The position numbers were made by a program, and so were the translations under genes. A stretch of DNA of 64,000 nucleotides from Mobula hypostoma (taxonomy: Eukaryota): positions 122,638,001 through 122,702,000 of the forward strand of contig NC_086097.1 in NCBI RefSeq assembly GCF_963921235.1, in the 5' to 3' direction. The notes beneath the pieces are model-generated. The model was not told where the DNA came from. It ran no database searches and saw only the letters and a program-made list of their open reading frames with translations. Of the stretch, positions 3,387 through 59,700 are shown in pieces. How positions within the stretch are numbered: position 1 is the first letter of the stretch; each line of letters begins with the position of its first letter.

Positions 3387-6300
3387 TGGCCTGACCAGTG
3401 TCTTATAAATTCTCAATAATATCTCCTTGTTTTTATATTCTATTACCCTTGAAATGAATGCCAGCATTTCATTTGCTTTCTTTACCACAGACTCAACACA
3501 TAAATTAATCTTGTGGGAATTTTGCATAAGGACTCCTAAGTCCCTTTGCACCTCTGATGCTTGAATTTTCTCCCCATTTAGATAATAGTCTGCAATATTG
3601 TTCTTTTTCCAAAACGCATTTCCCAATATTGTATTCTATCTGCCACTCTTTTTGTCCATTCTTCCAATTTGTCTAAGTCCTTCTGTATCACATTGCTTCC
3701 TGAGAACTAGCAACCCCTCTAGCTATCTTTGTATCATCTGCAAACTTTGCCACAAAGCCATCAATTCCATTATCTGCATCATTGACAAGCAATGTGATAA
3801 GCAGCGGTCCCAATACTGACACCTGAGGAACACCACTAGTCACTGGCAACCAACCAGAAAAGGCCCCTTTTATTCCCACTCGCTGCCTCCTGCCTGTCAG
3901 TCATTCATCTGTCCATGTCGATATCCTTCCTATAATGCCTTGGGATTTCATTTTGTTAAGCAGCCTCATGTGTGGACACCTTATCAAATGCCTTCTGAAA
4001 ATCCAAGTCAATGCATTCCACTGCCTCTCCTTTGTCCACCCTACTTGTTACTTCCTCAAACAAACTCTAACAAATTTGACAGGCAAGATTTCCTTTTACA
4101 GAAACCATGGTGACTTTGATTTATTTTATCATTAGTCTCCAAGTACCCCAAAACCTCGTAGTTAATAATAGACTCCAACACTTTCCCAACGACTGAGGTT
4201 AGGCTAACTGGCCTATAATGTACCTTCTTAAGGAGTGGAGTGACATTTACAATTTTCCAATCCCCTGGAACCATGCCACGATCAAGCAATTCCTGAAAGA
4301 TCATGACCAATTCATCCGTTATCTCTACAGCAACCTCTCTCAGGACTCTGGGATGTAATTCATCTGGTCCAGGTGACTTATCCACCTTAAGATTTTTGAG
4401 TTTGGCTAGCATTTTGACATTTGTAATAGCAATGGCACTCACTCCTGCTCCCTGACACCCACAGACCTCTGACACATTGCTGGTGTCTTCTACAGTGAAG
4501 ATTGATGCAAAGATCTTATTAAGTTCATTAGTCATTTCTTTGTTCCCCTTTATTAGCCTACCAGCATCATTTTCCAGTGGTCTGTTTTCAACTCTCACCT
4601 CCCTTTTACTCTTTATATACTGAAAAAAAAGCTTTAGTATCCTGCTTTATATTATCTGCTAGTTTGCCTTCATATTTCCTGTATTTTCTTCATATGGTTT
4701 TTTAGTTGCCTTATGTTGAATTTTAAAAACTTCCCAATCATCCAACTTCCTACTCCACATTCTATGCTCTTTCCTTGGCTTTTATGCAGTCCTTAACTTC
4801 CTTTGTCAGCCATGGTTGCTTACCTCTCTGTGAGACAAATCTATCCTGTGCCTTGTGAACTATTCCCAGAAACTTCAGCCACCTCTGCTCTGCTGTCATC
4901 CCCGCCAGTATCCCCCCTCTAATCCACCTGATCAAGCTCCTCTAGAATTCCCTTTATTCCATTGCGACATTGATACATTTGACTTTTGCTTCTCCCTTGA
5001 ATTCAATCATATTATGATCACTGTCTCCTAAGGGTTCCTTTACCTTCAGCTCCCTAATAAAACTTGGATTATTACACAACACCTAATCTAAAATGGCCTT
5101 TCCTCAAGTAGGCTCAAGCACAAGCTGCTCTAAAAAGCCATCTTGTAGGCATTCAACAAATTCCCTCTCTTGTAATCTAACACCAACCTGATTTTCCCAA
5201 TCCCCTTGCATATTGAAGTCTCCAATTACAATTGTGTCATTACTTTTGTTATGTGCCTTCTCCAGCTCCCTTTGCAATCTGAACCCCACATCATGGCTAC
5301 TATCTGGACACCAATATATGATTTCCATAACGATTCTTCTACCTTTCCAGTTTCTAAACTCACCCACAAAGATTCAACGTTGTCTGACTCTATGTCACCT
5401 CTTTCTAAAGCTGTAGTTCCATCTCTTACCAACAGAGCCACACCACCACCTATGCCTTCCTGCCTGTCCTTTCAATACAAAGTATATCCTTTGATGTTAA
5501 GCTCCCAACTATGGCCTTCTTTCAGCCATGACTCAGTGATACCCACAACATCATACCAACCAATCTTTAATTGCACCATGAATTCATCCACCTTATTCTG
5601 AATGCTACGCACATTTAAACACAGCATTTTCAGTCCTGCATTCTTTGCCTTTTAAATTCTGCCTCTGTGGTACAATTTAACTCTTTACTCTGTCTATATT
5701 TGTATCCAATCATTGACTTGTTCTTCTTTACATTCATTTTACACCCATCTTCTACTTCTGAACTTAAAGAAGGGTAACTTTGAAGGTATGAGACGTGAAT
5801 TAGCTAAGATAGACTCGCAAATGACACTTAAGTGGTTGACGGTGGATATGCAATGGCAAGCATTTAAAGATCGCATGGATGAACTACAACAATTGTTCAT
5901 CCCAGTTTGGCAAAAGAATAAATCAAGGAAGGTAGTGCACCCGTGGCTGACAAGGGAAATTAGGGATAGTATCAATTCCAAAGAAGAAGCATACAAATTA
6001 GCCAGAAAAAGTGGCTCACCTGAGGACTGGGAGAAATTCAGAGTTCAGCAGAGGAGGACAAAGGGCTTAATTAGGAAGGGGAAAAAAGATTATGAGAGAA
6101 AACTGGCAGGGAACATAAAAACTGACTGTAAAAGCTTTTATAGATATGTGAAAAGAAAAAATATTGGTTAAGACAAATGTAGGTCCCCTACAGACAGAAA
6201 CAGGTGAATTGATTACGGGGAGCAAGGACATGGCAGACCAATTGAATAATTACTTTGGTTCTGTCTTCACTAAGGAGGACATAAATAACTTTCCGGAAAT

Positions 6301-8808
6301 AGTAAGGGACAGAGGGTCCAGTAAGATGGAGGAACTGAGCGAAATACATGTTAGTAGGGAAGTGGTGTTAGGTAAATTGAAAGGATTAAAGGCAGATAAA
6401 TCCCCAGGGCCAGATGGTCTGCATCCCAGAGTGCTTAAGGAAGTAGCCCAAGAAATAGTGGATGCATTAGTGATAATATTTCAAAACTCTTTAGATTCTG
6501 GACTAGATCCTGAAGATTGGAGGGTGGCTAATGTAACCCCACTTTTTAAAAAAGGAGGGAGAGAGAAACCAGGGAACTACAGACCGGTTAGCCTAACATC
6601 AGTGGTGGGGAAACTGCTAGAGTCAGTTATCAAAGATGTGATAACAGCACATTTGGAAAGCAGTGAAATCATCAGCCAAAGTCAGCATGGATTTGTGAAA
6701 GGAAAATCATGTCTGACGAATCTCATAGAATTTTTTGAGGATGTAACTAGTAGAGTGGATAGGGGAGAACCAGTGGATGTGGTATATTTGGATTTTCAAA
6801 AGGCTTTTGACAAGGTCCCACACAGGAGATTAGTGTGCAAACTTAAAGCACACAGTATTGTGTGGATAAAGAATTGGTTGGCAGACAGGAAGCAAAGAGC
6901 GGGAATAAATGGGACCTTTTCAGAATGGCAGGCAGTGATTAGTGGGGTGCCGCAAGGCTCAGTGCTGGGACCCCAGTTGTTTACAATATATATTAATGAC
7001 TTGGATGAGGGAATTAAATGCAGCATCTCCAAGTTTGTGGATGACACGAAGCTGGGCGGCAGTGTTAGCTGTGAGGAGGATGCTAAGAGGATGCAGGGTG
7101 ACTTGGATAGGTTAGGTGGGTGGGCAATATTCATGGCAGATGCAATTTAATGTGGATAAATGTGAAGTTATCCACTTTGGTGGCAAAAACAGGAAAACAG
7201 ATTATTATCTGAATGGTGGCCGATTAGGAAAAGGGGAGGTGCAACGAGACCTGGGTGTCATTATACACCAGTCATTGAAAGTGGGCATGTAGGTACAGCA
7301 GGCGGTGAAAAAGACGAATGGTATGCTGGCATTTACAGCAAGAGGATTCGAGTACAGGAGCAGGGAGGTACCTCTGCAGTTGTACAAGGCCCTGGTGAGA
7401 CCACACCTGGAGTATTGTGCGCAGATTTGGTCCCCTAATCTGAGGAAAAACATCCTTGCCATAGAGGGAGTACAAAGAAGGTTCACCAGATTGATTCCTG
7501 GGATGGCAGGACTTTCATATGAAGAAAGACTGGATGAACTGGGCTTGTACTCGTTGGAATTTAGAAGATTGAGGGGGGATCTGATTGAAACCTATAAAAT
7601 CCTAAAGGGATTGGACAGGCTAGATGCAGGAAGATTGTTCCCAATGTTGGGGAAGTCCAGAACAAGGGGTCACAGTTTGAGGATAAAGGGGAAGCCTTTT
7701 AGGACCTAGATTAGGAAAAACTTCTTCACACAGAGAGTGGTGAATCTGTGGAATTCTTTGCCACAGGAAACAGTTGAGGCCAGTTCATTGGCTATATTTA
7801 AGAGAGAGTTAGATATGGCCCTTGTGGCTAAAGGGATCAGGGGGTATGGAGGGAAGGCTGGTACAGCGTTCTGAATTGGATGATCAGCCATGATTATACT
7901 GAATGGCAGTGCAGGCTCGAAGGGCCGAATGGCCTACTCCTGCACATATTTTCTATGTTTCTATGTTTCTATGTAAACCTGCCGGCTCATCCTTAGCTCT
8001 ATCATACTGGTTCCCATCCCCCTGCCATATTAGTTTAAACCACTCCCAGCAGCTCTAGCCATCCTGCCTCAAGGTGCCCCTTGGATTCAAGTGCAATGCG
8101 TCCCTTTTGTACAGGTCACACCTGCCCCAGAAGAGGTCCCAATTTTCCAGAAATCTGAGTCCCTCCTTCCTACTCCAATTCTTCAGCCACACATTTATCT
8201 GCCACTTCAATCTATTCCTATCCTCACTGTCGCATGGCACAGACAGCAATCCCCAGATTACTACCCTTGAGGTCCTTCTTCTCAACTTCCTGTATTCTGT
8301 TTTCAGGACCGCCTCACTTTCTCTACCTATGTCGCTCATGCCGATATATACCACAACTTCTCACAGCTTACCCTCCCTTTTCAGGATATTATGGACGCAT
8401 CCGGAAACATCACGGACCCTGACACCTGGGAGGCAAACTACCATCCGTGTTTCTTTTTCATGTCCATGGAGTCAACTATCTGTCTTCCTAACTAGAGTCC
8501 CCTATTACTTCTGCCGTTCTCTTCAGTTCCGTGCCTTCTGAGTCACGGGGCCAGACTCAGTGCCAGAGGCCTCGCCCAGTTAGGTCCCCCCAACCTCCAA
8601 CTGTACTCAAAATGGAGTACTTATTGTTGAGGGAGACAGCCACAAGTGTTCTCTCCACTATCTGACATTCCCCCTTCCCTCTCTTGACAGTCACCTATTT
8701 ATCTGTCTCGTAGACTTGGGATGTCTACCTCCCTGTAACTCCTGTCTATCACCTCCTCACTTTCCCTGACAAGCCGAAGGTCATCCAGCTGCAGCTCCAG
8801 TTCCCTAA
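3387..8808 (-). mobile_element. Older CR1 LINE (partial ORF1 with SGNH esterase-like domain; ORF2 APE endonuclease and RT), interrupted by the young CR1 at 5756-7974
   Basis: ORF1: VRELELQLDDLRLV coiled coil and WDLFWGRCDLYKRDALHLNPRG. ORF2: IGDFNMQGDW, DKSPGPDELHPRVLRE, SGVPQVSVLGPLL, KFADDTK. Many stops and frameshifts; the flanks rejoin across the insertion. Confidence 0.9.
5756..7974 (+). mobile_element. Young CR1 copy A, 5'-truncated, ORF2 disrupted
   Basis: RT motifs (YLDFQKAFDKVPH, GVPQGSVLGP, KFVDD); frameshifts near 6165 and 7130; stops near 7290 and 7707; 3' hairpin and (TTTCTATG)n tail. Confidence 0.97.
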
Positions 8809-12950: not shown

Positions 12951-13894
12951 ATCTGTGTGGATTGCTGAGACACTAAAGGTGCTATCATGCCTTCGTTATG
13001 ATGGACCTTACATACCGCTCCTAGGACAGGTCCTCATGATTTAGGAATCTTCCTAAGTACTCAATTATTGCTGGCTTAGTGCATGTTTAATTGCTAGCCA
13101 ATGAAATAGTTAGGTGTTCACAGGACATCACTTATAATACTTTCATCTCCCTGATGCACTAAAGCTATAGTTATAGTATGTGCTGAACAGCAGTTTCTTT
13201 TTAACCTATACCATTAAAAATATAATCTAAAAATTATGTGTATTAATTTTAGTATTAAGAGCAATTGAATTATTAAATTGAATGTATTGCACTTCTAAAT
13301 TAATTAAATATGTTTCTCAGTGGCTTGAACAGTTTGACAGCTAAAAACTGTATCACCATGACTCCTGATCCATTTTCTACTGTCTGTCTGGATTCTTCCA
13401 TCATTTTTTCCACATCAGTAGATTGTACATGTTCACCCATGCATGGATTAGAAGAGAAGAGCGGGTCAAAATAAGATCATAAGGCATAGGAGCACAATTA
13501 GGCTATTCAAACTGCTCTGCCATTCCATCATAGTTGATTTATTATCCTTCTCAACTTCCTTTTGCCTTCTTCCTGTAATCTTTGACGCTGTTACTAATCA
13601 AGAACCTATTAACCTCTGCTTTAAATATGCCAGATGATTTGGCCTTCACAGCCATCTGTGACAATGAATTCCACAGAATCACCACTCTTTGCCTAAAGAA
13701 ATTCCTCCTCATCTCTGTTCTAAAGGGGTGCCCTTCTATTCTGAGGCTATGCTCTCTGGTCCTAGATTCCCTCCACTGTACAAAACATCCTCTCCACATC
13801 TACTCTGTCTAGGCCTTTCAATATTCGATGAGATTCCCTCCACATTCTTCTAAACTCCAGTGAGTACAGGTCCAGGACCATCAAATGCTCCTTC

Positions 13895-14069
13895 AAATGC
13901 GTGGCTGAGGGATTGGAGCAGGGGGCAGGGATTCAAGTTTTTGGATCATTGGGACCTCTTTTGGCGCAGGCGTGACCTGTACAAAAAGGACGGGTTACAC
14001 TTGAATCCCAGGGGGACCAATATCCTGACAGGGAGATTAGCAGGGGCTACTGAGGTGACTTTAAACTAG
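13895..14069 (+). pseudogene. CR1 ORF1 C-terminus (SGNH/GDSL esterase-like), 5'-truncated
   Basis: NAWLRDWSRGQGFKFLDHWDLFWRRRDLYKKDGLHLNPRGTNIL, containing the DGLH motif. Confidence 0.9.
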
Positions 14070-17000
14070 AATGGTTGGGGGGTGGGAATCAAATTAAAGA
14101 GGCTAGGCGTGAGGAGGTTAGTTCACAACAGAGGGATGGGAACCAGTGCAGAGAGACAGAGGGGTGTAAAGTGAGCGTAGAAGCAAAAAGTACAAAGGAG
14201 AAAAGTAAAAGTGGCAGGCCGACAAATCCAGGGCAAGCATTACAAAGGGCCACTTTTCAACATAATTATACAAGGGCTAAGAGAGTTGTAAAAGAGCGCC
14301 TGAAGGCTTTATGTGTCAATGCAAGGAGCATTCATAATAAGGTGGATGAATTGAAAGTGCAGATTGTTATTAATGATTATGATATAGTTGGGATAACAGA
14401 GACATAGCTCCAGGGTGACCAGGGATGGGAGCTCAACGTTCAGGGATATTCAATATTCAGGAGGGATAGACATGAAGGAAGGGGAGGTGGGGTGGCGTTG
14501 CTGGTTAAAGAAGAGATTAACGCAATAGAAAGGAAGGACATAAGCCGGGAAGATGTGGAATCGATATGGGTAGAGCTGCGTAACACTAAGGGGCAGAAGA
14601 CGCTGGTAGGAGTTGTGTACAGGCCACCGAACAGTAGTAGTGAGGTCGGAGATGGTATTAAACAGGAAATTAGAAATGTGTGCAATAAAGGAACAGCAGT
14701 TATAATGGGTGACTTCAATCTACATGTAGACTGGGTGAACCAAATTGGTAAAGGTGCTGAGGACGAGGATTTCTTGGAATGTATGCGGGATGGTTTTTTG
14801 AACCAACATGTCGAGGAACCAACTAGAGAGCAGGCTATTCTGGACTGGGTTTTGAGCAATGAGGAAGGGTTAATTAGCGATCTTGTCGTGAGAGGCCCCT
14901 TGGGTAAGAGTGACCATAATATGGTGGAATTCTTCATTAATATGGAGAGTGACATAGTTAATTCAGAAACAAAGGTTCTGAACTTAAAGAGGGGTAACTT
15001 TGAAGGTATGAGACGTGAATTAGCTAAGATAGACTGGCAAATGACACTTAAAGGATTGACGGTGGATATGCAATGGCAAGCATTTAAAGGTTGCATGGAT
15101 GAACTACAACAATTGTTCATCCCAGTTTGGCAAAAGAATAAATCAAGGAAGGTAGTGCACCCGTGGCTGACAAGAGAAATTAGGGATAGTATCAATTCCA
15201 AAGAAGTAGCATACAACTTAGCCAGAGAAAGTGGTTCACCTGAGGACTGGGAGAAATTCAGAGTTCAGCAGAGGAGGACAAAGGGCTTAATTAGGAAGGG
15301 GAAAAAAGATTATGAGAGAAAACTGGCGGGGAACATAAAAATGGACTGTAAAAGCTTTTATAGATATGTAAAAAGGAAAAGACTGGTAAAGACAAATGTA
15401 GGTCCCCTGCAGACAGAAACAGGTGAATTGATTATGGGGAGCAAGGACATGGCAGACCAACTGAATAATTACTTTGGTTCTGTCTTCACTAAGGAGGACA
15501 TAAATAATCTTCCAGAAATAGTAAGGGACAGAGGGTCCAGTGAGATGGAGGAACTGAGTGAAATACATGTTAGTAGGGAAGTGGTGTTAGGTAAATTGAA
15601 GGGATTGAAGGCAGATAAATCCCCAGGGCCAGATGGTCTGCATCCCAGAGTGCTTAAGGAAGTAGCCCAAGAAATAGTGGATGCATTAGTGATAATTTTT
15701 CAAAACTCGTTAGATTCTGGACTAGTTCCTGAGGATTGGAGGGTGGCTAATGTAACCCCACTTTTTAAAAAAGGAGGGAGAGAGAAACCAGTGAATTATA
15801 GACCGGTTAGCTTAACGTCGGTGGTGGGGAAACTGCTGGAGTCAGTTATCAAGGATGTGATAACAGCACATTTGGAAAGCGGTGAAATGATCGGACAAAG
15901 TCAGCATGGATTTGTGAAAGGAAAATCATGTCTGACGAATCTCATAGAATTTTTTGAGGATGTAACTCGTAGAGTGGATAGGGGAGAACCAGTGGATGTG
16001 GTATATTTGGATTTTCAATAGGCTTTTGACAAGGTCCCACACAGGAGATTAGTGTGCAAACTTAAAGCACACGGTATTGGGGGTAAGGTATTGGTGTGGG
16101 TGGAGAATTGGTTAGCAGACAGGAAGCAAAGCGTGGGAATAAACGGGACCTTTTCAGAATGGCAGGCGGTGACTAGTGGGGTACCGCAAGGCTCAGTGCT
16201 GGGACCCCAGTTGTTTACAATATATATTAATGACTTGGATGAGGGAATTAAATGCAGCATCTCCAAGTTTGCGGATGACACGAAGCTGGGTGGCAGTGTT
16301 AGCAGTGAGGAGGATGCTAAGAGGATGCAGGGTGACTTGGATAGGTTGGGTGAGTGGGCAAACTCATGGCAGATGCAATTTAATGTGGATAAATGTGAAG
16401 TTATCCACTTTGGTGGCAAAAATAGGAAAACAGATTATTATCTGAATGGTGGCCGATTAGGAAAAGGGGAGGTGCAACGAGACCTGGGTGTCATTATACA
16501 CCAGTCATTGAAAGTGGGCATGCAGGTACAGCAGGCGGTGAAAAAGGCGAATGGTATGCTAGCATTTATAGCGAGAGGATTCGAGTACAGGAGCAGGGAG
16601 GTACTACTGCAGTTGTACAAGGCCTTGGTGAGACCACACCTGGAGTATTGTGTGCAGTTTTGGTCCCCTAATCTGAGGAAAGACATCTTTGCCATAGAGG
16701 GAGTACAAAGAAGGTTCACCAGATTGATTCCTGGGATGGCAGGACTTTCATATGAAGAAAGACTGGATGAACTGGGCTTGTACTCATTGGAATTTAGAAG
16801 ATTGAGGGGGGATCTGATTGAAACGTATAAGATCCTAAAGGGATTGGACAGGCTAGATGCAGGAAGATTGTTCCCGATGTTGGGGAAGTCCAGAACGAGG
16901 GGTCACAGTTTGAGGATAGAGGGGAAGCCTTTTAGGACCGAGCTTGGGAAAAACTTCTTCACACAGAGAGTGGTGAATCTGTGGAATTCTCTGCCACAGC

Positions 17001-17107
17001 AAACTGTTGAGGCCAGTTCATTGGCTATGTTTAAGAGGGAGTTAGATATGGCCCTTGTGGCTACAGCGGTCAGGGGGTATGGAGGGAAGGCTGGGGCGGG
17101 GTTCTGA
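14054..17107 (+). pseudogene. CR1 ORF2 (APE endonuclease + reverse transcriptase) with two nonsense substitutions and no frameshift
   Basis: Track ORFs 14075, 14492 and 16052 share one frame. Stops at 14405-14407 (GITET*) and 16019-16021 (LDFQ*). Motifs: NARS, GDFN, SDH, FADD. Confidence 0.95.
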
Positions 17108-19439
17108 GTTGGATGATCAGCCATGATCATAATAAATGGCGGTGCAGGCTCGAAGGGCCGAATGGCCTACTCCTTCACCTATTTTCTATGTTTCTATGTT
17201 TCTATGTTTCTATACGTTAACGTTTTCATTCCTCGGATCATTCTCGTGAAACTCCTCTGGACCGTCTCAAATGCCAACAACCTAGTTTCTTAGATAAGGG
17301 ACCCAAAACTGGTCACAGTGCTCAAAGTGTAGCCTGACCAATGCCTTAAAATGCCTCAGCCTTACGTCCTTGCTTTTATTTTTCCAGCCCTCTTGAAATA
17401 AGTACTAACAATGCATTTGCCTTGCTTATTACTCAATCAACCTCTCAAGTTAACCTTTAGGAAATCCTGGACTAGAACTCCTATGTATGTGTATGATATT
17501 TGTATAATGTATGATAAATGCATGATATTCACTATTTTGCATGATGTCTGACAGGCTCTGATTTAACATTCCTAGTAAGTTATTTGGCACTATAGACGAG
17601 TGATGATTTGCATGAGGCTAGTGTACACTACAGTTCGTTAAGGAAGTGTAAATGTACATTCCTAGTGGGCCTACATCTTCTTCTTAAGTGGATCACCCCT
17701 ACTGGGGCAAAGGCTGCAGACAGCACCTGGCCCGATTCCTCTGTCCTGGGCGGATAGATGGCTGATTGGCCCTGTGGCTTCCATTTTCACCACACGACTT
17801 CATATACCTTCCAGATAAAGATCCTTCCTCTCCCAGGAATGCGGTCTTTTGGCTTCTGTTGGTGTTTCTACAGGGTGTGCTCTGACAGGGTGGGGATGCT
17901 AGTTCCATGGCCAATGCTCCTCCTTTCACAGTCAGGCTTGGGACCATCCATAGCAGAGTTAAGAGACCTACGTGGTGTACACAATCTATCTAGGGCAAGG
18001 AACAAGACTTAACATTAAATTAGAGAGGAATAATCATATTGTGCATAATGACCATTATAAGTACATTAAGATAATGATAATTATGCCCTGTCGTGATTAG
18101 TCACTTTCACCAGTCTACTTAAATGCTTCAGCAACAGAATTGCCTCCATCTAACACGACTGTGATGCTCAGTTGGTTATTTCACCTCACGTAATTTTGGA
18201 ACTCATCAGCCCATCAAATTAACAACACGAGTTCCCCGAGGCTAACCCTACTCTGCTAAGTATAACTTACAAGAGAAGAATGGCAGGGAATGCAAATGTA
18301 AATCTAAAAAATGTGATCTCTTCCATTTTTTTCCTTACTGTACCTCTCAAATGGATTGCTACTCAACAGAAGAAATCATTCCAGGGTATATTTTCCAACG
18401 TGCTACTGTTTTTTCTATGATGCCTGTGCCTGCTCTTTGAAAGGACATTCCAATCAGTCCCATTCCCTTTTCATCCACAAAAGGAACAACCAGAAACCTG
18501 AAACTCACCATTATGTGAAGTACAGAGTCTAATCAAATGCAGTCTACCTTCACTGCAGAAGGAATTATTGACCTAAAGTCAACAATTCTTCCCCCCCCCA
18601 AACTCATGATTACATCAAGCATATAGTGTGTTGCTCCCCACAGAAAGTCACTATTTTGTCAACATCCACTGTCTTTACAGGGAGTGAATTAAAATCACAA
18701 CAGTTCAGGGAATAAAAGGGTTAATAGTATTTTCTTTGTTTCTTTATTTAATTTAAATTTACATCTTTTAATTATTCCCTCATCTGGCACCGGATAGCAT
18801 CTCTCTATCAAAGCTATTCATCATTTTGAATGCCTCTACTTAATCTCCCTACTATCTTATCTATATAAAAAATTTAAAAATCCACGCAATGCCTATTTTA
18901 TTAGGTATTGGAGGTACCTAATAAAGTGGCCACTGTATTTGTCTTTCACTAAAAGAAAATCTCTAAGAAGACTTGCCATTTCTCTGCAACTTTGTTTTTT
19001 TTCACCTTTTTAAATCTAGCTTCTCAATTAATTTTTCAGTGTTCCTGCTACATGATAAATCTACAGTGACTAAAGTAGTTAAATGCCAGAACTAGTATGG
19101 GGAGCGCTATAATATTGATTTGATTCAAGCTCTGTGACAACGGCTGGGGAATTTAAATTACACAAGTCAGCAGATGGAAATTGTAACTTTTATTGCTGAG
19201 AACCCTTGCAACAATGATGTCTTAAAGTCTGATAATAAAACTACTGGATTACCTTAAAATCTACTTGGTTCACTGTTATTTTTAAGCAAAAGCAATGTTG
19301 CCTTTGCCTAGTCTAGTTAATATGCCACACTTAATTACCCTCTCAAAAAAATCCACTCCATTAAAGGACAATGAATTTTAGCCTTGCTTGCAATATCCAC
19401 GGTTCATGGTCAAATACCACTTTGCTGCTAACATCTTGA

Positions 19440-47435: not shown

Positions 47436-50075
47436 AAAATCAGAATCGGATTTAATATCATTGCAATACAGTGCCACAGTCAAGGGTGTGGAGAGAGCAC
47501 AGCAGTGGGCCAAGCATGCATCCTTGAGGTGCGCCGGTGTTAATTGTCAGCAAGTAGATGTTATTTGTGATATGCACTAAGTGTGGTCTCCCGATGAGTA
47601 AGTCCAGTTGCAGAGTGAGGTAAAAAGGCCCAGATTTTGGAGCTTGTTTATTAGCACTGATAGAAACATAGAAACATAGAAAATAGGTGCAGGAGTAGGC
47701 CATTCGGCCCTTCGAGCCTGCACCGCCATTCAGTATGATCATGGCTGATCATCCAACTCAGAACCCTGTACCAGCCTTCCCTCCATACCCCCTGATCCCT
47801 TTAGCCACAAGGGCCATATCTAACTCCCTCTTAAATATAGCCAAAGAACCGGCCTCAATTGTTTCCTGTGGCAGAGAATTCCACAGATTCACCACTCTCT
47901 GTGTGAAGAAGTTTTTCCTAATCTCGGTCCTAAAAGGCTTCCCCTTTATCCTCAAACTGTGATCCCTCGTTCTGGACCTCCCCAACATCAGGAACAATCG
48001 TCCTGCATCTAGCCTGTCCAATCCCTTTAGGATTTTATACATTTCAATCAGATCCCCCCTCAATCTTCTAAATTCCAATGAGTATAAGCCTAGTTCATCC
48101 AGTCTTTCATCATATGATATTCCTGCCATCCCAGGAATCAATCTGGTGAACCTTCTTTGTACTCCTTCTATGGCAAGGATGTCTTTCCTCAGATTAGGGG
48201 ACCAAATCTGCACACAATACTCCAGGTGTGGTCTCACCAAGGCCTTGTACAACTGCAGTAGTACCTCCCTGCTCCTGTACTCGAATCCTCTTGCTATAAA
48301 TGCCAGCATACCATTCGCCTTTTTCACCACCTGCTGTACCTGCATGCCCACTTTCAATGACTGGTGTATAATGACACCCAGGTCTCGTTGCACCTCCCCT
48401 TTTCCTAATCGGCCACCATTCAGATAATAATCTGTTTTCCTGTTTTTGCCACCACAGTGGATAATTTCACATTTATCCACATTAAATTGCATCTGCCATG
48501 AATTTGCCCACTCACCTAACCTATCCAAGTCACCCTGCACCCTCTTAGCATCCTCCTCACAGCTAACACTGCCGCCCAGCTTCATGTCATCCGCAAACTT
48601 GGAGATGCTGCATTTAATTCCCTCATCCAAGTCATTAATATATATTGTAAACAACTGGGGTCCCAGCACTGAGCCTTGCAGTACCCCACTAGTCACTGCC
48701 TGCCATTTTGAAAAGGTCCCGTTTATTCCCACTCTTTGCTTCCTGTCTGCCAACCAATTCTCTATCCACATCAATACCTTACCCCCAATACAGTGTGCTT
48801 TAAGTTTGCACACTAATCTCCTGTGTGGGACCTTGTCAAAAGCCTTTTGAAAATCCAAATATACCACATCCACTGGTTCTCCCCTATCCACTCTACTAGT
48901 TACACTAGTTACATTCTCAAAAATTTCTATGAGATTCGTCAGACATGATTTTCCTTTCGCAAATCCATGCTGACTTTGGCCGATGATTTCACCGCTTTCC
49001 AAATGTGCTGTTATCACATCTTCGATAACTGACTCTAGCAGTTTCCCCACCACCGATGTTAGGCTAACCAGTCTATAATTCACTGGTTTCTCTCTCCCTC
49101 CTTTTTTAAAAAGTGGGGTTACATTAGCCACCCTCCAATCCTCAGGAACTAGTCCAGAATCTAAAGAGTTTTGAAAAATTATCACTAATGCATCCACTAT
49201 TTCTTGGGCTACTTCCTTAAGCACTCTGGGATGCAGACCATCTGGCCCTGGGGATTTATCTGCCTTTAATACCTTCAATTTACCTAATACCACTTCCCTA
49301 CTAACATGTATTTCCCTCAGTTCCTCCATCTCACTGGACCCTCTGTACCCTACTATTTCCGGAAGATTATTTATGTCCTCCTTAGTGAAGACAGAACCAA
49401 AGTAATTATTCAATTGGTCTGCCATGTCCTTGCTCCCCATAATCAATTCACCTGTTTCTGTCTGTAGGGGACCTACATTTGTCTTAACTAATCTTTTTCT
49501 TTTCACATATCTATAAAAGCTTTTACAGTCAGTTTTTATGTTCCCTGCCAGTTTTCTCGCATAATCTATTTTCCCCTTCCTAATTAAACCCTTTGTCCTC
49601 TTCTGCTGAACTCTGAATTTCTCCCAGTCCTCAGGTGAGCCACTTGCTCTGTCTAATTTGTATGCTTCTTCTTTGGAATTGATACTATCCCTAATTTCCC
49701 TTGTCAGCCACGGGTGTACTACCTTCCTTGATTTATTCTTTTGCCAAACTGGGATGAACAATTGTTGTAGTTCATCCATGCGATCTTTAAATGCTTGCCG
49801 TTGCATATCCACCGTCAACCCTTTAAGTGTCATTTGCCAGTTTACCTTAGCTAATTCACATCTCATACCTTCAAAGTTACCCTTCTTTAAGTTCAGAACC
49901 TTTGTTTGATGGTATGATGGTGTTGAACGCTGAGCAATCAGCAGTAGCCCAACACATAGGTAGTACTGTTGTCCAGGTGATCCAAGCCCGAGTGGAGAGA
50001 CAGTGTGATTGTATCTACTGTAGACCTACTGTGGTGATAGGCAAATCCCAGTGGGCCTAGGTCCTTCATTAGGAC
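47436..50075 (-). mobile_element. Rex1/Babar RT fragment split by CR1 copy C
   Basis: TINTGAPQGCMLGPLL on the left; FAYHHSRSTVDTITLSLHSGLDHLDN on the right. Confidence 0.8.
47662..49907 (-). mobile_element. Young CR1 copy C, 5'-truncated; uninterrupted RT-containing frame (47758-49866)
   Basis: 702-aa ORF with FADD and a 9-bp duplication (VTSVTS); (CATAGAAA)n tail; possible 3-bp TSD GAT at 47659-47661 and 49908-49910. Confidence 0.98.
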
Positions 50076-56744: not shown

Positions 56745-59700
56745 ACAAAGGCTTCTGACAGTCGCCAGGATGTGGGCTACAAATTTCAACAGGAGATAGA
56801 AAAGGCATGTGAAAAGGGCAAAGTTGTGATAGTCAATGAGGATTTCAATATGCAGGTAGATTGGGAAAATGAGGCTGGTGATGGATCCCAAGCCAGGACA
56901 TTTGCAGAATGCTTATGAGATGGCTTTTTAGAGCATGCTTGTGGTTGAACCCTCCAGGGAATGGCAGTTCTGGTTTGGGTGTTGTGTAATGACTCAGATT
57001 TGATTAGGGAGCCAAAGGTAAATGAATCCTTAGGAGGCAGTGATTATAACATGATAGAATTCACCCTGCAATTTGTGAAGGGGAAGCTAGAATCCAATGT
57101 ATCAGTATTACAGTGGAGTAGTGGGAATTACAGAAGCATGAGAGAGGAGCTGACCACAGTTGATTGGAAGGGGACACTAGCAGGGATGACGATAGAACAG
57201 CAATGGCTGGTGCTTCTGGGAGCAAATTGGAAGGCACAGGGTAGATGCATCCCAAAGATGAAGAAGAATTCTATAGGGAGAATGAGGCAACCACGGCTAA
57301 CAAGAGAAGCCAAAGATAACACAAAAGCAAAAGAGAGAGCATATAGTATAGCAAAACTTAATGAGAAGGTAAAGAATTAGGAAGCTTATAAAAAACCAAC
57401 ATAAGGCAACTAAATAAGACATAAAGAGAGAATATATAGAAACATAGAAACATAGAAAATAGGTGCAGGAGTAGGCCATTCGGCCCTTCGAGCCTGCACC
57501 GCCATTTATTATGATCATGGCTGTTCATCCAACTCAGAACCCCGCCCCAGCCTTCCCTCCATACCCCCTGACCCCTGTAGCCACAAGTGCCATATCTAAC
57601 TTCCTCTTAAACATAGCCAATGAACTGGCCTCAACAGTTTGCTGTGGCAGAGAATTCCACAGATTCACCACTCTCTGTGTGAAGAAGTTTTTCCCAAGCT
57701 CGGTCCTAAAAGGCTTCCCCTCTATCCTCAAACTGTGACCCCTCGTTCTGGACTTCCCCAACATCGGGAACAATCTTCCTACATCTAGCCTGTCCAATCC
57801 CTTTAGGATCTTATACGTTTCAATCAGATCCCCCCTCAATCTTCTAAATTCCAACGAGTACAAGCCCAGTTCATCCAGTCTTTCTTCATATGAAAGTCCT
57901 GCCATCCCAGGAATCAATCTGGTGAACCTTCTTTGTACTCCCTCTATGGCAAAGATGTCTTTCCTCAGATTAGGGGACCAAAACTGCACACAATACTCCA
58001 GGTGTGGTCTCACCAAGGCCTTGTACAACTGCAGTAGTACCTCCCTGCTCCTGTACTCGAATCCTCTCGCTATAAATGCCAGCATACCATTCGCCTTTTT
58101 CACCGCCTGCTGTACCTGCATGCCCACTTTCAATGACTGGTGTATAATGACACCCAGGTCTCGTTGCACCTCCCCTTTTCCTAATCGGCCACCATTCAGA
58201 TAATAATCTGTTTTCCTATTTTTGCCACCAAAGTGGATAACTTCACATTTATCCACATTAAATTGCATCTGCCATGAGTTTGCCCACTCACCCAACCTAT
58301 CCAAGTCACCCTGCATCCTCTTAGCATCCTCCTCACTGCTAACACTGCCACCCAGCTTCGTGTCATCCGCAAACTTGGAGATGCTGCATTTAATTCCCTC
58401 ATCCAAGTCATTAATATATATTGTAAACAACCTGGGTCCCAGCACTGAGCCTTGCGGTACCCCACTAGTCACCGCCTGCCATTCTGAAAAGGTCCCGTTT
58501 ATTCCCACTCTTTGCTTCCTGTCTGCTAACCAATTCTCCACCCACACCAATACCTTACCCCCAATACCGTGTGCTTTAAGTTTCCACACTAATCTCCTGT
58601 GTGGGACCTTGTCAAAAGCCTTTTGAAAATCCAAATATACCACATCCACTGGTTCTCCCCTATCCACTCTACTAGTTACATCCTCAAAAAATTCTATCAG
58701 ATTCGTCAGACATGATTTTCCTTTCACACATCCATGCTGACTTTGTCCGATCATTTCACCGCTTTCCAAATGTGCTGTTATCACATCCTTGATAACTGAC
58801 TCCAGCAGTTTCCCCACCACCGACGTTAGGCTAACCGGTCTATAATTCCCCGGTTTCTCTCTCCCTCCATTTTTAAAAAGTGGGGTTACATTAGCCACCC
58901 TCCAATCCTCAGGAACTAGTCCAGAATCTAACGAGTTTTGAAAAATTATCACTAATGCATCCACTATTTCTTGGGCTTCTTCCTTAAGCACTCTAGGATG
59001 CAGACCATCTGGCCCTGGGGATTTATCTGCCTTCAATCCCTTCAATTTACCTAACACCACTTCCCTACTAACATGTATTTCACTCAGTTCCTCCATCTCA
59101 CTGGACCCTCTGTCCCTTACTATTTCTGGAAGATTATTTATGTCCTCCTTAGTGAAGACAGAACCAAAGTAATTACTCAATTGGTCTGCCATGTCCTTGC
59201 TCCCCATAATCAATTCACCTGTTTCTGTCTGCAGGGGACCTACATTTGTCTTTACCAGTCTTTTCCTTTTTACATATCTATAAAAGCTTTTACAGTCCGT
59301 TTTTATGTTCCCCGCCAGTTTTCTCTCATAATCTTTTTTCCCCTTCCTAATTAAGCCCTTTGTCCTCCTCTGCTGAACTCTGAATTTCTCCCAGTCCTCA
59401 GGTGAGCCACTTTCTCTGGCTAATTTGTATGCTACTTCTTTGGAATTGATACTATCCCTAATTTCTCTTGTCAGCCACGGGTGTACTACCTTCCTTGATT
59501 TATTCTTTTGCCAAACTGGGATGAACAATTGTTGTAGTTCATCCATGCAACCTTTAAATGCTTGCCATTGCATATCCACCGTCATAAATATTAAGTTAAA
59601 CTAGCCATTAATATAAAAAAGGATACCATATGTTTTTTCTTAGATAGACAAAGAGTAAAAGTGAGACAAGAGTGTACATTGGATCACTAGAAAATGATGG

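Follow-up and report, generated by a model that had tools for sequence, protein, structure and literature searches.

How do CR1 elements, the main repeat of the chicken, make the enzyme that copies them? The question is raised by a long interspersed nuclear element (LINE) of this type at about positions 13895–17213 of a 64,000-nucleotide (nt) stretch of the Mobula hypostoma genome (assembly GCF_963921235.1, contig NC_086097.1, positions 122,638,001–122,702,000 of the forward strand; hereafter the window). Here, the open reading frame (ORF) for endonuclease and reverse transcriptase (ORF2) lies in the −1 frame relative to the preceding ORF1, which ends in the heptamer U_UUA_AAC followed directly by the stop codon. 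This junction layout is conserved across distant CR1 lineages. From the comparison of related sequences, we consider it probable (roughly 0.78) that the junction is a programmed −1 frameshift site giving an ORF1–ORF2 fusion protein.

The ORF1/ORF2 junction

The element has the features of the CR1 group, i.e. an SGNH-esterase ORF1, an APE endonuclease and a reverse transcriptase in ORF2, and a 3′ end of 8-nt tandem repeats, which we take to be a CR1-type end, assuming the usual CR1 consensus unit. Its 5′ end is truncated at about 13895. The ORF1 remnant matched Pfam Lipase_GDSL_2 under the curated cut-off (E = 2.9 × 10−4); the full-length relative P0001 matched the ORF1 esterase structure of zebrafish ZfL2-1 (4C1B, E = 4.9 × 10−29). 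Skates, rays, and sharks were the sources of the nearest named ORF1 proteins, and the ORF1 tree placed the element next to turtle and lizard elements.

A −1 frameshift site has been defined as a heptamer X_XXY_YYZ in zero-frame phase, in which YYY is AAA or UUU (PMC3542737). Such a heptamer is present in phase at the end of ORF1, whose last codons are ACT TTA AAC TAG (14058–14069), and the downstream ORF lies in an open −1 frame. This frame is open from 14054 and overlaps ORF1 by 16 nt. Between the junction and the endonuclease it contains no stop codon, compared with 3 and 8 stop codons in the other two frames. The earliest in-frame ATG of ORF2, at 14705, is located far inside the endonuclease; another ATG, at 14071, does not belong to the ORF2 frame and yields 8 codons. 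The original prediction, made from the letters of the window, had described the heptamer in phase before the stop, the −1 ORF2 bounded upstream by a TGA, the short overlap, and the position of both ATGs, and sequence and translations confirmed each of these.

The copy in the window is inactive. ORF2 is interrupted by in-frame stop codons at 14405–14407 and 16019–16021, and neither the ORF1 nor the ORF2 protein can be made from the element; the case for frameshifting therefore depends on its relatives. Moreover, the junction 10-mer was not enriched in the window (7 matches with at most one mismatch versus 7.1 expected), so that its weight comes from its position, its phase, and its conservation across lineages.

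Conservation of the heptamer in related elements

Relatives were collected with an ORF1 protein profile carrying no codon information, which fetched 80 metagenome loci. These consisted of 9 loci with an ORF1 ending in Leu-Asn, 1 locus with A_AAA_AAC, 29 loci of a UGA type (picked by eye), and 18 loci whose contig ended upstream of the ORF1 stop; 1 further locus lacked an ORF1 match, and 22 were broken or non-LINE and remained unclassed. Eight additional loci from genome contigs were bacterial SGNH genes and were excluded. Scans of viral contigs found no relative, and plasmids yielded none.

The nine Leu-Asn loci were combined with two copies from the window into a junction set (n = 11). The second window copy is older and lies on the minus strand, with ORF1 from about 8830 to 8030 and ORF2 resuming at about 5755. 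It is 75% identical to the first copy over 198 nt of DNA, the peptide behind its junction resembles that of the first copy, and its −1 frame is open up to a later insertion.

All 11 junctions carry TTA AAC directly followed by a stop codon (TAG in ten, TAA in one), set against a local codon background in which TTA accounts for 12 of 102 Leu codons and AAC for 10 of 33 Asn codons. The base before TTA is T in 10 of 11 junctions, contributed by five different codons (ACT, GGT, TGT, TCT, and GCT). Agreement at third codon positions was 4–8 of 11 upstream, versus 10, 11, and 11 of 11 within the heptamer. The sole exception to the leading U is L001 with G_UUA_AAC; a GUU form is tolerated in the frameshift site of equine arteritis virus (PMC3542737). 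The −1 frame was free of stop codons from the heptamer to the endonuclease in all eight testable loci, and both other frames contained stops. In six of these eight loci the −1 frame closes 13–19 nt before the ORF1 stop, with no AUG in between. Identity of ORF2 to that of the window element was 41–44% for L001, L002, L003, and L012. In this sample of related loci, the heptamer was thus conserved beyond the need of the protein at synonymous sites, with change between shift-prone forms, which supports the −1 frameshift put forward in the original prediction.

Variation within the family was assessed in contigs of four sequencing runs aligned to 13890–14430, three of them deep (15,575, 14,837, and 808 contigs). 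Positions 14044–14109 were free of variants among the 40 variants listed (there were 29 more), and no indel reached 5%. By codon reading, none of 13 variants in the linker introduced a stop codon into the ORF2 frame. A further subfamily, found in loose contig ends, has GAG AGT TTA AA at the junction.

Table 1. Coordinates of the CR1 features discussed in the text (positions within the window)
Feature	Position	Strand	Basis
3′ remnant of CR1 ORF1 (C-terminal SGNH esterase, 57 codons + TAG)	13896..14069	+	
TGA closing the ORF2 (−1) frame upstream, limiting the overlap to 16 nt	14051..14053	+	
Open −1-frame linker into the endonuclease; no stop and no AUG in this copy	14054..14299	+	
Slippery heptamer U_UUA_AAC, in ORF1 phase	14060..14066	+	Sequence
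ORF1 stop codon (TAG) abutting the 3′ side of the heptamer; candidate pause signal with a putative stimulatory role	14067..14069	+	
Conserved unstructured G-rich motif, encoding Gly-x-Gly of the −1 frame	about 14073–14086	+	
ORF2 endonuclease and reverse transcriptase	14300..17107	+	Exo_endo_phos_2, E = 7 × 10−10; RVT_1, E = 2 × 10−19
3′ tail of 8-nt repeats, CTATGTTT x4.5, no poly(A)	17179..17213	+	
Junction of the second, older CR1 copy: GGT TTA AAC TAA, −1 frame open	8030..8039	−	

Other heptamers and readthrough-type lineages

ORF1 proteins from further lineages extended the comparison. Leu-Asn formed the end of 91 of the 163 ORF1 proteins reaching the C-terminal region; this ending was found in rays, sharks, a frog, turtles, and a lizard. 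Amino acids that have no codon ending in U stood directly before Leu-Asn in 1 of 33 clusters, versus 11 and 13 of 33 at the two preceding positions; as a test for the leading U, this protein-level pattern is of modest weight. Nine of the 163 proteins ended in Gln-Gly-Asn (P0127, P0128, P0129, P0138, P0144, P0158, P0169, P0221, and P0228), and sister proteins of this group end in Glu-Asn or Phe-Phe-x. Judged from protein alone, the Gln-Gly-Asn ends are probably compatible with G_GGA_AAC.

A different heptamer was seen in L005, which belongs to a distant branch. There, A_AAA_AAC at 1810–1816 is in phase with ORF1, 40 nt upstream of the stop, and reading on from this heptamer in the −1 frame leads into the endonuclease. 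Proteins related to L005 carry Lys-Asn followed by a short variable tail. Lys-Asn occurred in the tail of 12 proteins, in each case preceded by an amino acid for which a codon ending in A exists; these tails would fit A_AAA_AAC, with L005 as the one case seen as DNA. U_UUA_AAC, A_AAA_AAC, and G_GGA_AAC have all been named among the heptamers most prone to shift in mammalian ribosomes (PMC5009743).

Another layout was found in the 29 esterase-LINE loci whose ORF1 ends with TGA (L004, L014, L015, L019, L024–L031, L035, L036, L040, L044, L046, L047, L050, L052–L054, L059, L060, L064, L066, L067, L074, and L079). The stop context is TGACTA in 17 and TGACCA in 8 of them, and in unbroken copies the endonuclease follows the TGA in frame 0, often without an AUG. 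UGA-CUA is a type II readthrough motif (PMC3542737). For 11 of these loci, folding of the sequence that follows the UGA gave z-scores of −1.2 to +0.75, none of them significant. In an ORF1 tree built with FastTree (170 rows, junction columns omitted), TGACTA appeared on four long branches, three of them L014, L019, and L074 and the fourth a cluster of numerous close relatives. Because the tree has many open branches and long-branch joins, we claim no order of events.

Retroviruses reach pol either by frameshift or by readthrough (PMC5009743). A comparable switch among esterase LINEs suggests that selection acts in favour of a fusion made at low ratio. Both the change to another shift-prone heptamer in L005 and the readthrough layout of the sister lineages lend further support to frameshifting at the CR1 junction.

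One protein of the set stood out by its source. P0020 is a CR1 ORF1 with a Leu-Asn end and 61% identity to P0001, named as an SGNH hydrolase of Pseudomonas aeruginosa on a 4-kilobase contig; the bacterial record likely contains host contamination.

Proposed mechanism and observations against it

In the proposed mechanism, most ribosomes would terminate at the UAG and release the ORF1 protein (ORF1p), and a minority would slip one base back on the Leu and Asn codons, with UUA AAC re-pairing to UUU AAA. The shifted ribosomes would read their next codon at 14066–14068 and then an 80-codon linker leading into endonuclease and reverse transcriptase. The product would be an esterase–endonuclease–reverse transcriptase fusion made at a fixed low ratio, like Gag-Pol. 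The least certain step is the pause, which would most likely come from the abutting stop codon, perhaps with help from a factor on the G-run that lies 10 nt downstream.

A number of observations weigh against this mechanism. The 11 junctions are not independent: eight of the nine loci from outside the window are related amniote-type loci and three come from one data set. In addition, L003 was anchored by a motif search because its ORF1 frame is broken. Four of 11 junctions (L002, L003, L006, and L012) have an in-frame AUG at +5, counted from the first base of the stop, and 7 of 8 linkers contain one at some position, versus 4.7 ± 1.3 expected by chance. In the family of the window copy, the variant 14171 G>A, which changes an in-frame GTG into ATG, accounted for 25%, 95%, 0, and 3% of the depth in the four sequencing runs. 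The original prediction, which held that ORF2 has no in-frame AUG upstream of the endonuclease and named such an AUG in the consensus as refuting evidence, is correct for this copy but does not hold throughout the family. Local RNA structure was not conserved at the junctions, with z-scores ranging from −2.5 to +1.5 (+0.55 for this copy); 0 consensus pairs were found, and Rfam gave no match. A heptamer without a stimulatory structure may shift weakly. At the protein level, the contrast in residues without a U-ending codon was weaker at positions −6 to −8 (2, 3, and 8 of 33), and the Ser-Asn or Glu-Asn ends of some ORF1 proteins are at odds with a strict XXX. Finally, a weak search for a natural in-frame esterase–endonuclease–reverse transcriptase protein found none among three long matches.

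Two proteins containing both an esterase and a reverse transcriptase, P0244 and P0245, were rejected as natural fusions. In both, the reverse transcriptase comes first, and they look like gene-model chimeras.

Candidate stimulators of the proposed shift

As no RNA structure is conserved, a pause would most likely come from the adjacent stop codon, which adjoins the heptamer in 11 of 11 junctions. No classical stem-loop or pseudoknot was found 5–9 nt downstream, pseudoknots as such lying outside the modelling. A search for a long-range partner of the G-run stayed at the null level in most loci.

The sequence downstream of the stop is conserved as a G-rich motif. Counted from the first base of the stop, it has a G at +7, a run from +10 to +14, and a second run from +17 to +20. 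At +10 to +14, G is present in 9–10 of 10 junctions; at +17 and +18, it is present in 9 of 10. The motif is perhaps a protein-binding stimulator. In arteriviruses, the nsp1beta/PCBP site has a spacing of 10 nt to a short unstructured motif. This system sets a precedent for stimulation by a protein where RNA structure is absent (PMC5009743), but the arterivirus motif is C-rich and the shift is mostly −2, whereas the CR1 motif is G-rich and its factor is only proposed.

Two other candidates were rejected. A G-quadruplex, which the original prediction had suggested as a possible stimulator, was predicted in only 4 of 10 junctions (ViennaRNA G-quadruplex mode, 60-nt windows) and was discarded as a general stimulator; according to a 2016 review, natural stimulation by G-quadruplexes was not known at that time (PMC5009743). 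In amniote-type loci, a C-rich site some 670 nt upstream was considered as a pairing partner; it belongs to a proline-rich region of ORF1, and neither the second window copy nor L001 has it.

A small hairpin of the CCAGGC...GCCTGG type is present about 27–50 nt past the ORF1 stop in the amniote-type junctions of L006, L012, L013, and L016. This distance exceeds that of a classical stimulator, and the window copies showed no such hairpin.

A broader proposal can be made only tentatively, and we would at present give it less than even odds. Esterase-ORF1 LINEs across animals might make ORF2 as a fusion by recoding, switching between frameshifting (U_UUA_AAC, A_AAA_AAC, and probably G_GGA_AAC) and UGA-CUA readthrough. 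The shift of vertebrate CR1 elements might be structure-free and driven by the abutting stop codon together with a protein-bound G-run, which would be an undescribed type of stimulator.

Alternative routes to ORF2

The accepted route to ORF2 in L1 and SART1 is termination–reinitiation, in which ribosomes would stop at the UAG and a fraction of them would restart at a nearby AUG or near-cognate codon, giving a free ORF2 protein (ORF2p), with the conserved bases serving termination or restart. Precedents are L1, for which this route has been proposed, and SART1, for which it has been demonstrated, and non-AUG restarts are tolerated (PMC5972666, PMC3894237). The in-frame AUGs described above, including the ATG that some members of the window copy's family have at 14171, fit this route, as does a UGGGA just past the stop in both window copies. 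However, the position of the AUG wanders among loci (+5, +59, +77, +260, or none). In 7 of 11 junctions the nearest AUG downstream of the stop is not in the ORF2 frame, and an AUG at 14171 would come third, preceded by two that are out of frame. A fixed start beside the stop, as in SART1 or in systems with a TURBS motif (termination upstream ribosome-binding site), was not found: the AUG at +5 is restricted to 4 of 11 junctions and is absent from both window copies, and the four loci having it keep the heptamer too. Furthermore, the TURBS motif works upstream of the stop, not downstream (PMC5972666). Reinitiation would leave unexplained the fixation of the TTA and AAC codons, the leading U, the changes to A_AAA_AAC and G_UUA_AAC, and the UGA-CUA of the sister lineages. 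We regard it as unlikely at this junction, although it may operate alongside frameshifting in some subfamilies.

Constraint on the two proteins alone would fix the same bases if the esterase needed its Leu-Asn end and the ORF2 frame its Phe-Lys-Leu, with ORF2 entered further upstream by some other route. Dual coding of this kind would fix TTT AAA CTA exactly, and the −1-frame peptide FKLxxxGxG is indeed common to the window and the amniote-type loci. Nevertheless, since the −1 frame in most testable loci closes so near the stop and without an AUG there, any entry into ORF2 would again be a shift in the last few codons; the Lys-Asn, Gly-Asn, and readthrough-type lineages, for their part, keep the esterase without Leu-Asn. 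This makes for a very improbable explanation. Slightly more improbable still is that ORF2 is made from a separate or spliced RNA, for instance with the AG of the stop as acceptor, the heptamer then being incidental. Apart from the stop ending in AG we found no support for this possibility, which the original prediction had listed as a way to refute frameshifting. No pyrimidine tract precedes the AG, the second window copy has TAA instead, and no recurrent joint over the junction was found in one run guessed to be RNA, a weak check as it used contigs only.

Relation to known systems

A −1 frameshift at the CR1 junction would have its closest likeness in viral and retroviral sites, such as the U_UUA_AAC class, Rous sarcoma virus gag-pol, and the G_UU site of equine arteritis virus, which share an in-phase heptamer closing an abundant first ORF and a polymerase in the −1 frame (PMC5009743, PMC3542737). 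In contrast to these, the CR1 junctions have no conserved stem-loop or pseudoknot 5–9 nt downstream, have the stop abutting the heptamer throughout, and belong to a retrotransposon without long terminal repeats (non-LTR).

For non-LTR elements, frameshifting as such has precedents. TRE5-A and TRE3-A of Dictyostelium, APE-type LINEs with two ORFs, have likewise been stated to require a −1 frameshift for ORF2 (PMC5911963); they differ in being amoebal, in belonging to another group, and in having a different ORF1, and the passage concerned gives neither a heptamer nor an experiment. In Penelope-like elements with two ORFs, a frameshift accompanied by a pseudoknot can separate ORF1 (PMC8557442), and some Penelope-like elements carry the same esterase (PMC3905857). 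Penelope-like elements are another class of retroelement, however, and the pseudoknot is theirs, with none conserved in CR1. Mammalian L1 and silkworm SART1 share with CR1 a low level of ORF2 product from a bicistronic LINE RNA, but ORF2 of L1 follows a 63-nt spacer and has an AUG, that of SART1 has a UAAUG stop–start with a downstream structure, and both give free ORF2p by reinitiation (PMC5972666, PMC3894237).

A literature check, which the original prediction had proposed, found no report of a frameshift at the CR1 junction in the open literature; the founding CR1 papers were outside its coverage, and a prior mention is possible. CR1 is unmentioned in the searched part of a 2016 review on frameshifting (PMC5009743). 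A 2013 review presents ORF2 translation of two-ORF LINEs as an open question, its relevant section not naming a frameshift route (PMC3894237).

If the frameshift is real, it would answer how CR1 elements make their copying enzyme. CR1 ORF2p would be synthesized as a fusion with the lipid-binding esterase ORF1p; this single step would account for both cis assembly and stoichiometry, and the annotation of CR1 ORF2 starts would change. The junction would also be a very widespread natural frameshift site of vertebrates, apparently free of pseudoknots.

Other CR1 copies in the window

CR1 sequences fill much of the window. The element at about 13895–17213 itself sits within the 3′ end of an older minus-strand CR1 (13551–13893 and 17212–17389), and no target-site duplication was evident by eye around it. 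The older minus-strand copy that provided the second junction (8830–3387) is nearly full-length and was hit by a young CR1 (5756–7967, plus strand), which is 5′-truncated and was inserted about 60 nt downstream of the older junction.

This insertion is one of three further young copies belonging to the family of the first copy, located at 57441–59584 (minus strand), 47665–49907 (minus strand), and 5756–7967, with identities of 99%, 95%, and 94%, respectively. All three are 5′-truncated within about 90 nt of each other (positions 14967–15057 of the reference copy). The 99% identical copy also has the stop codon at 16019–16021, which suggests a recent common source.

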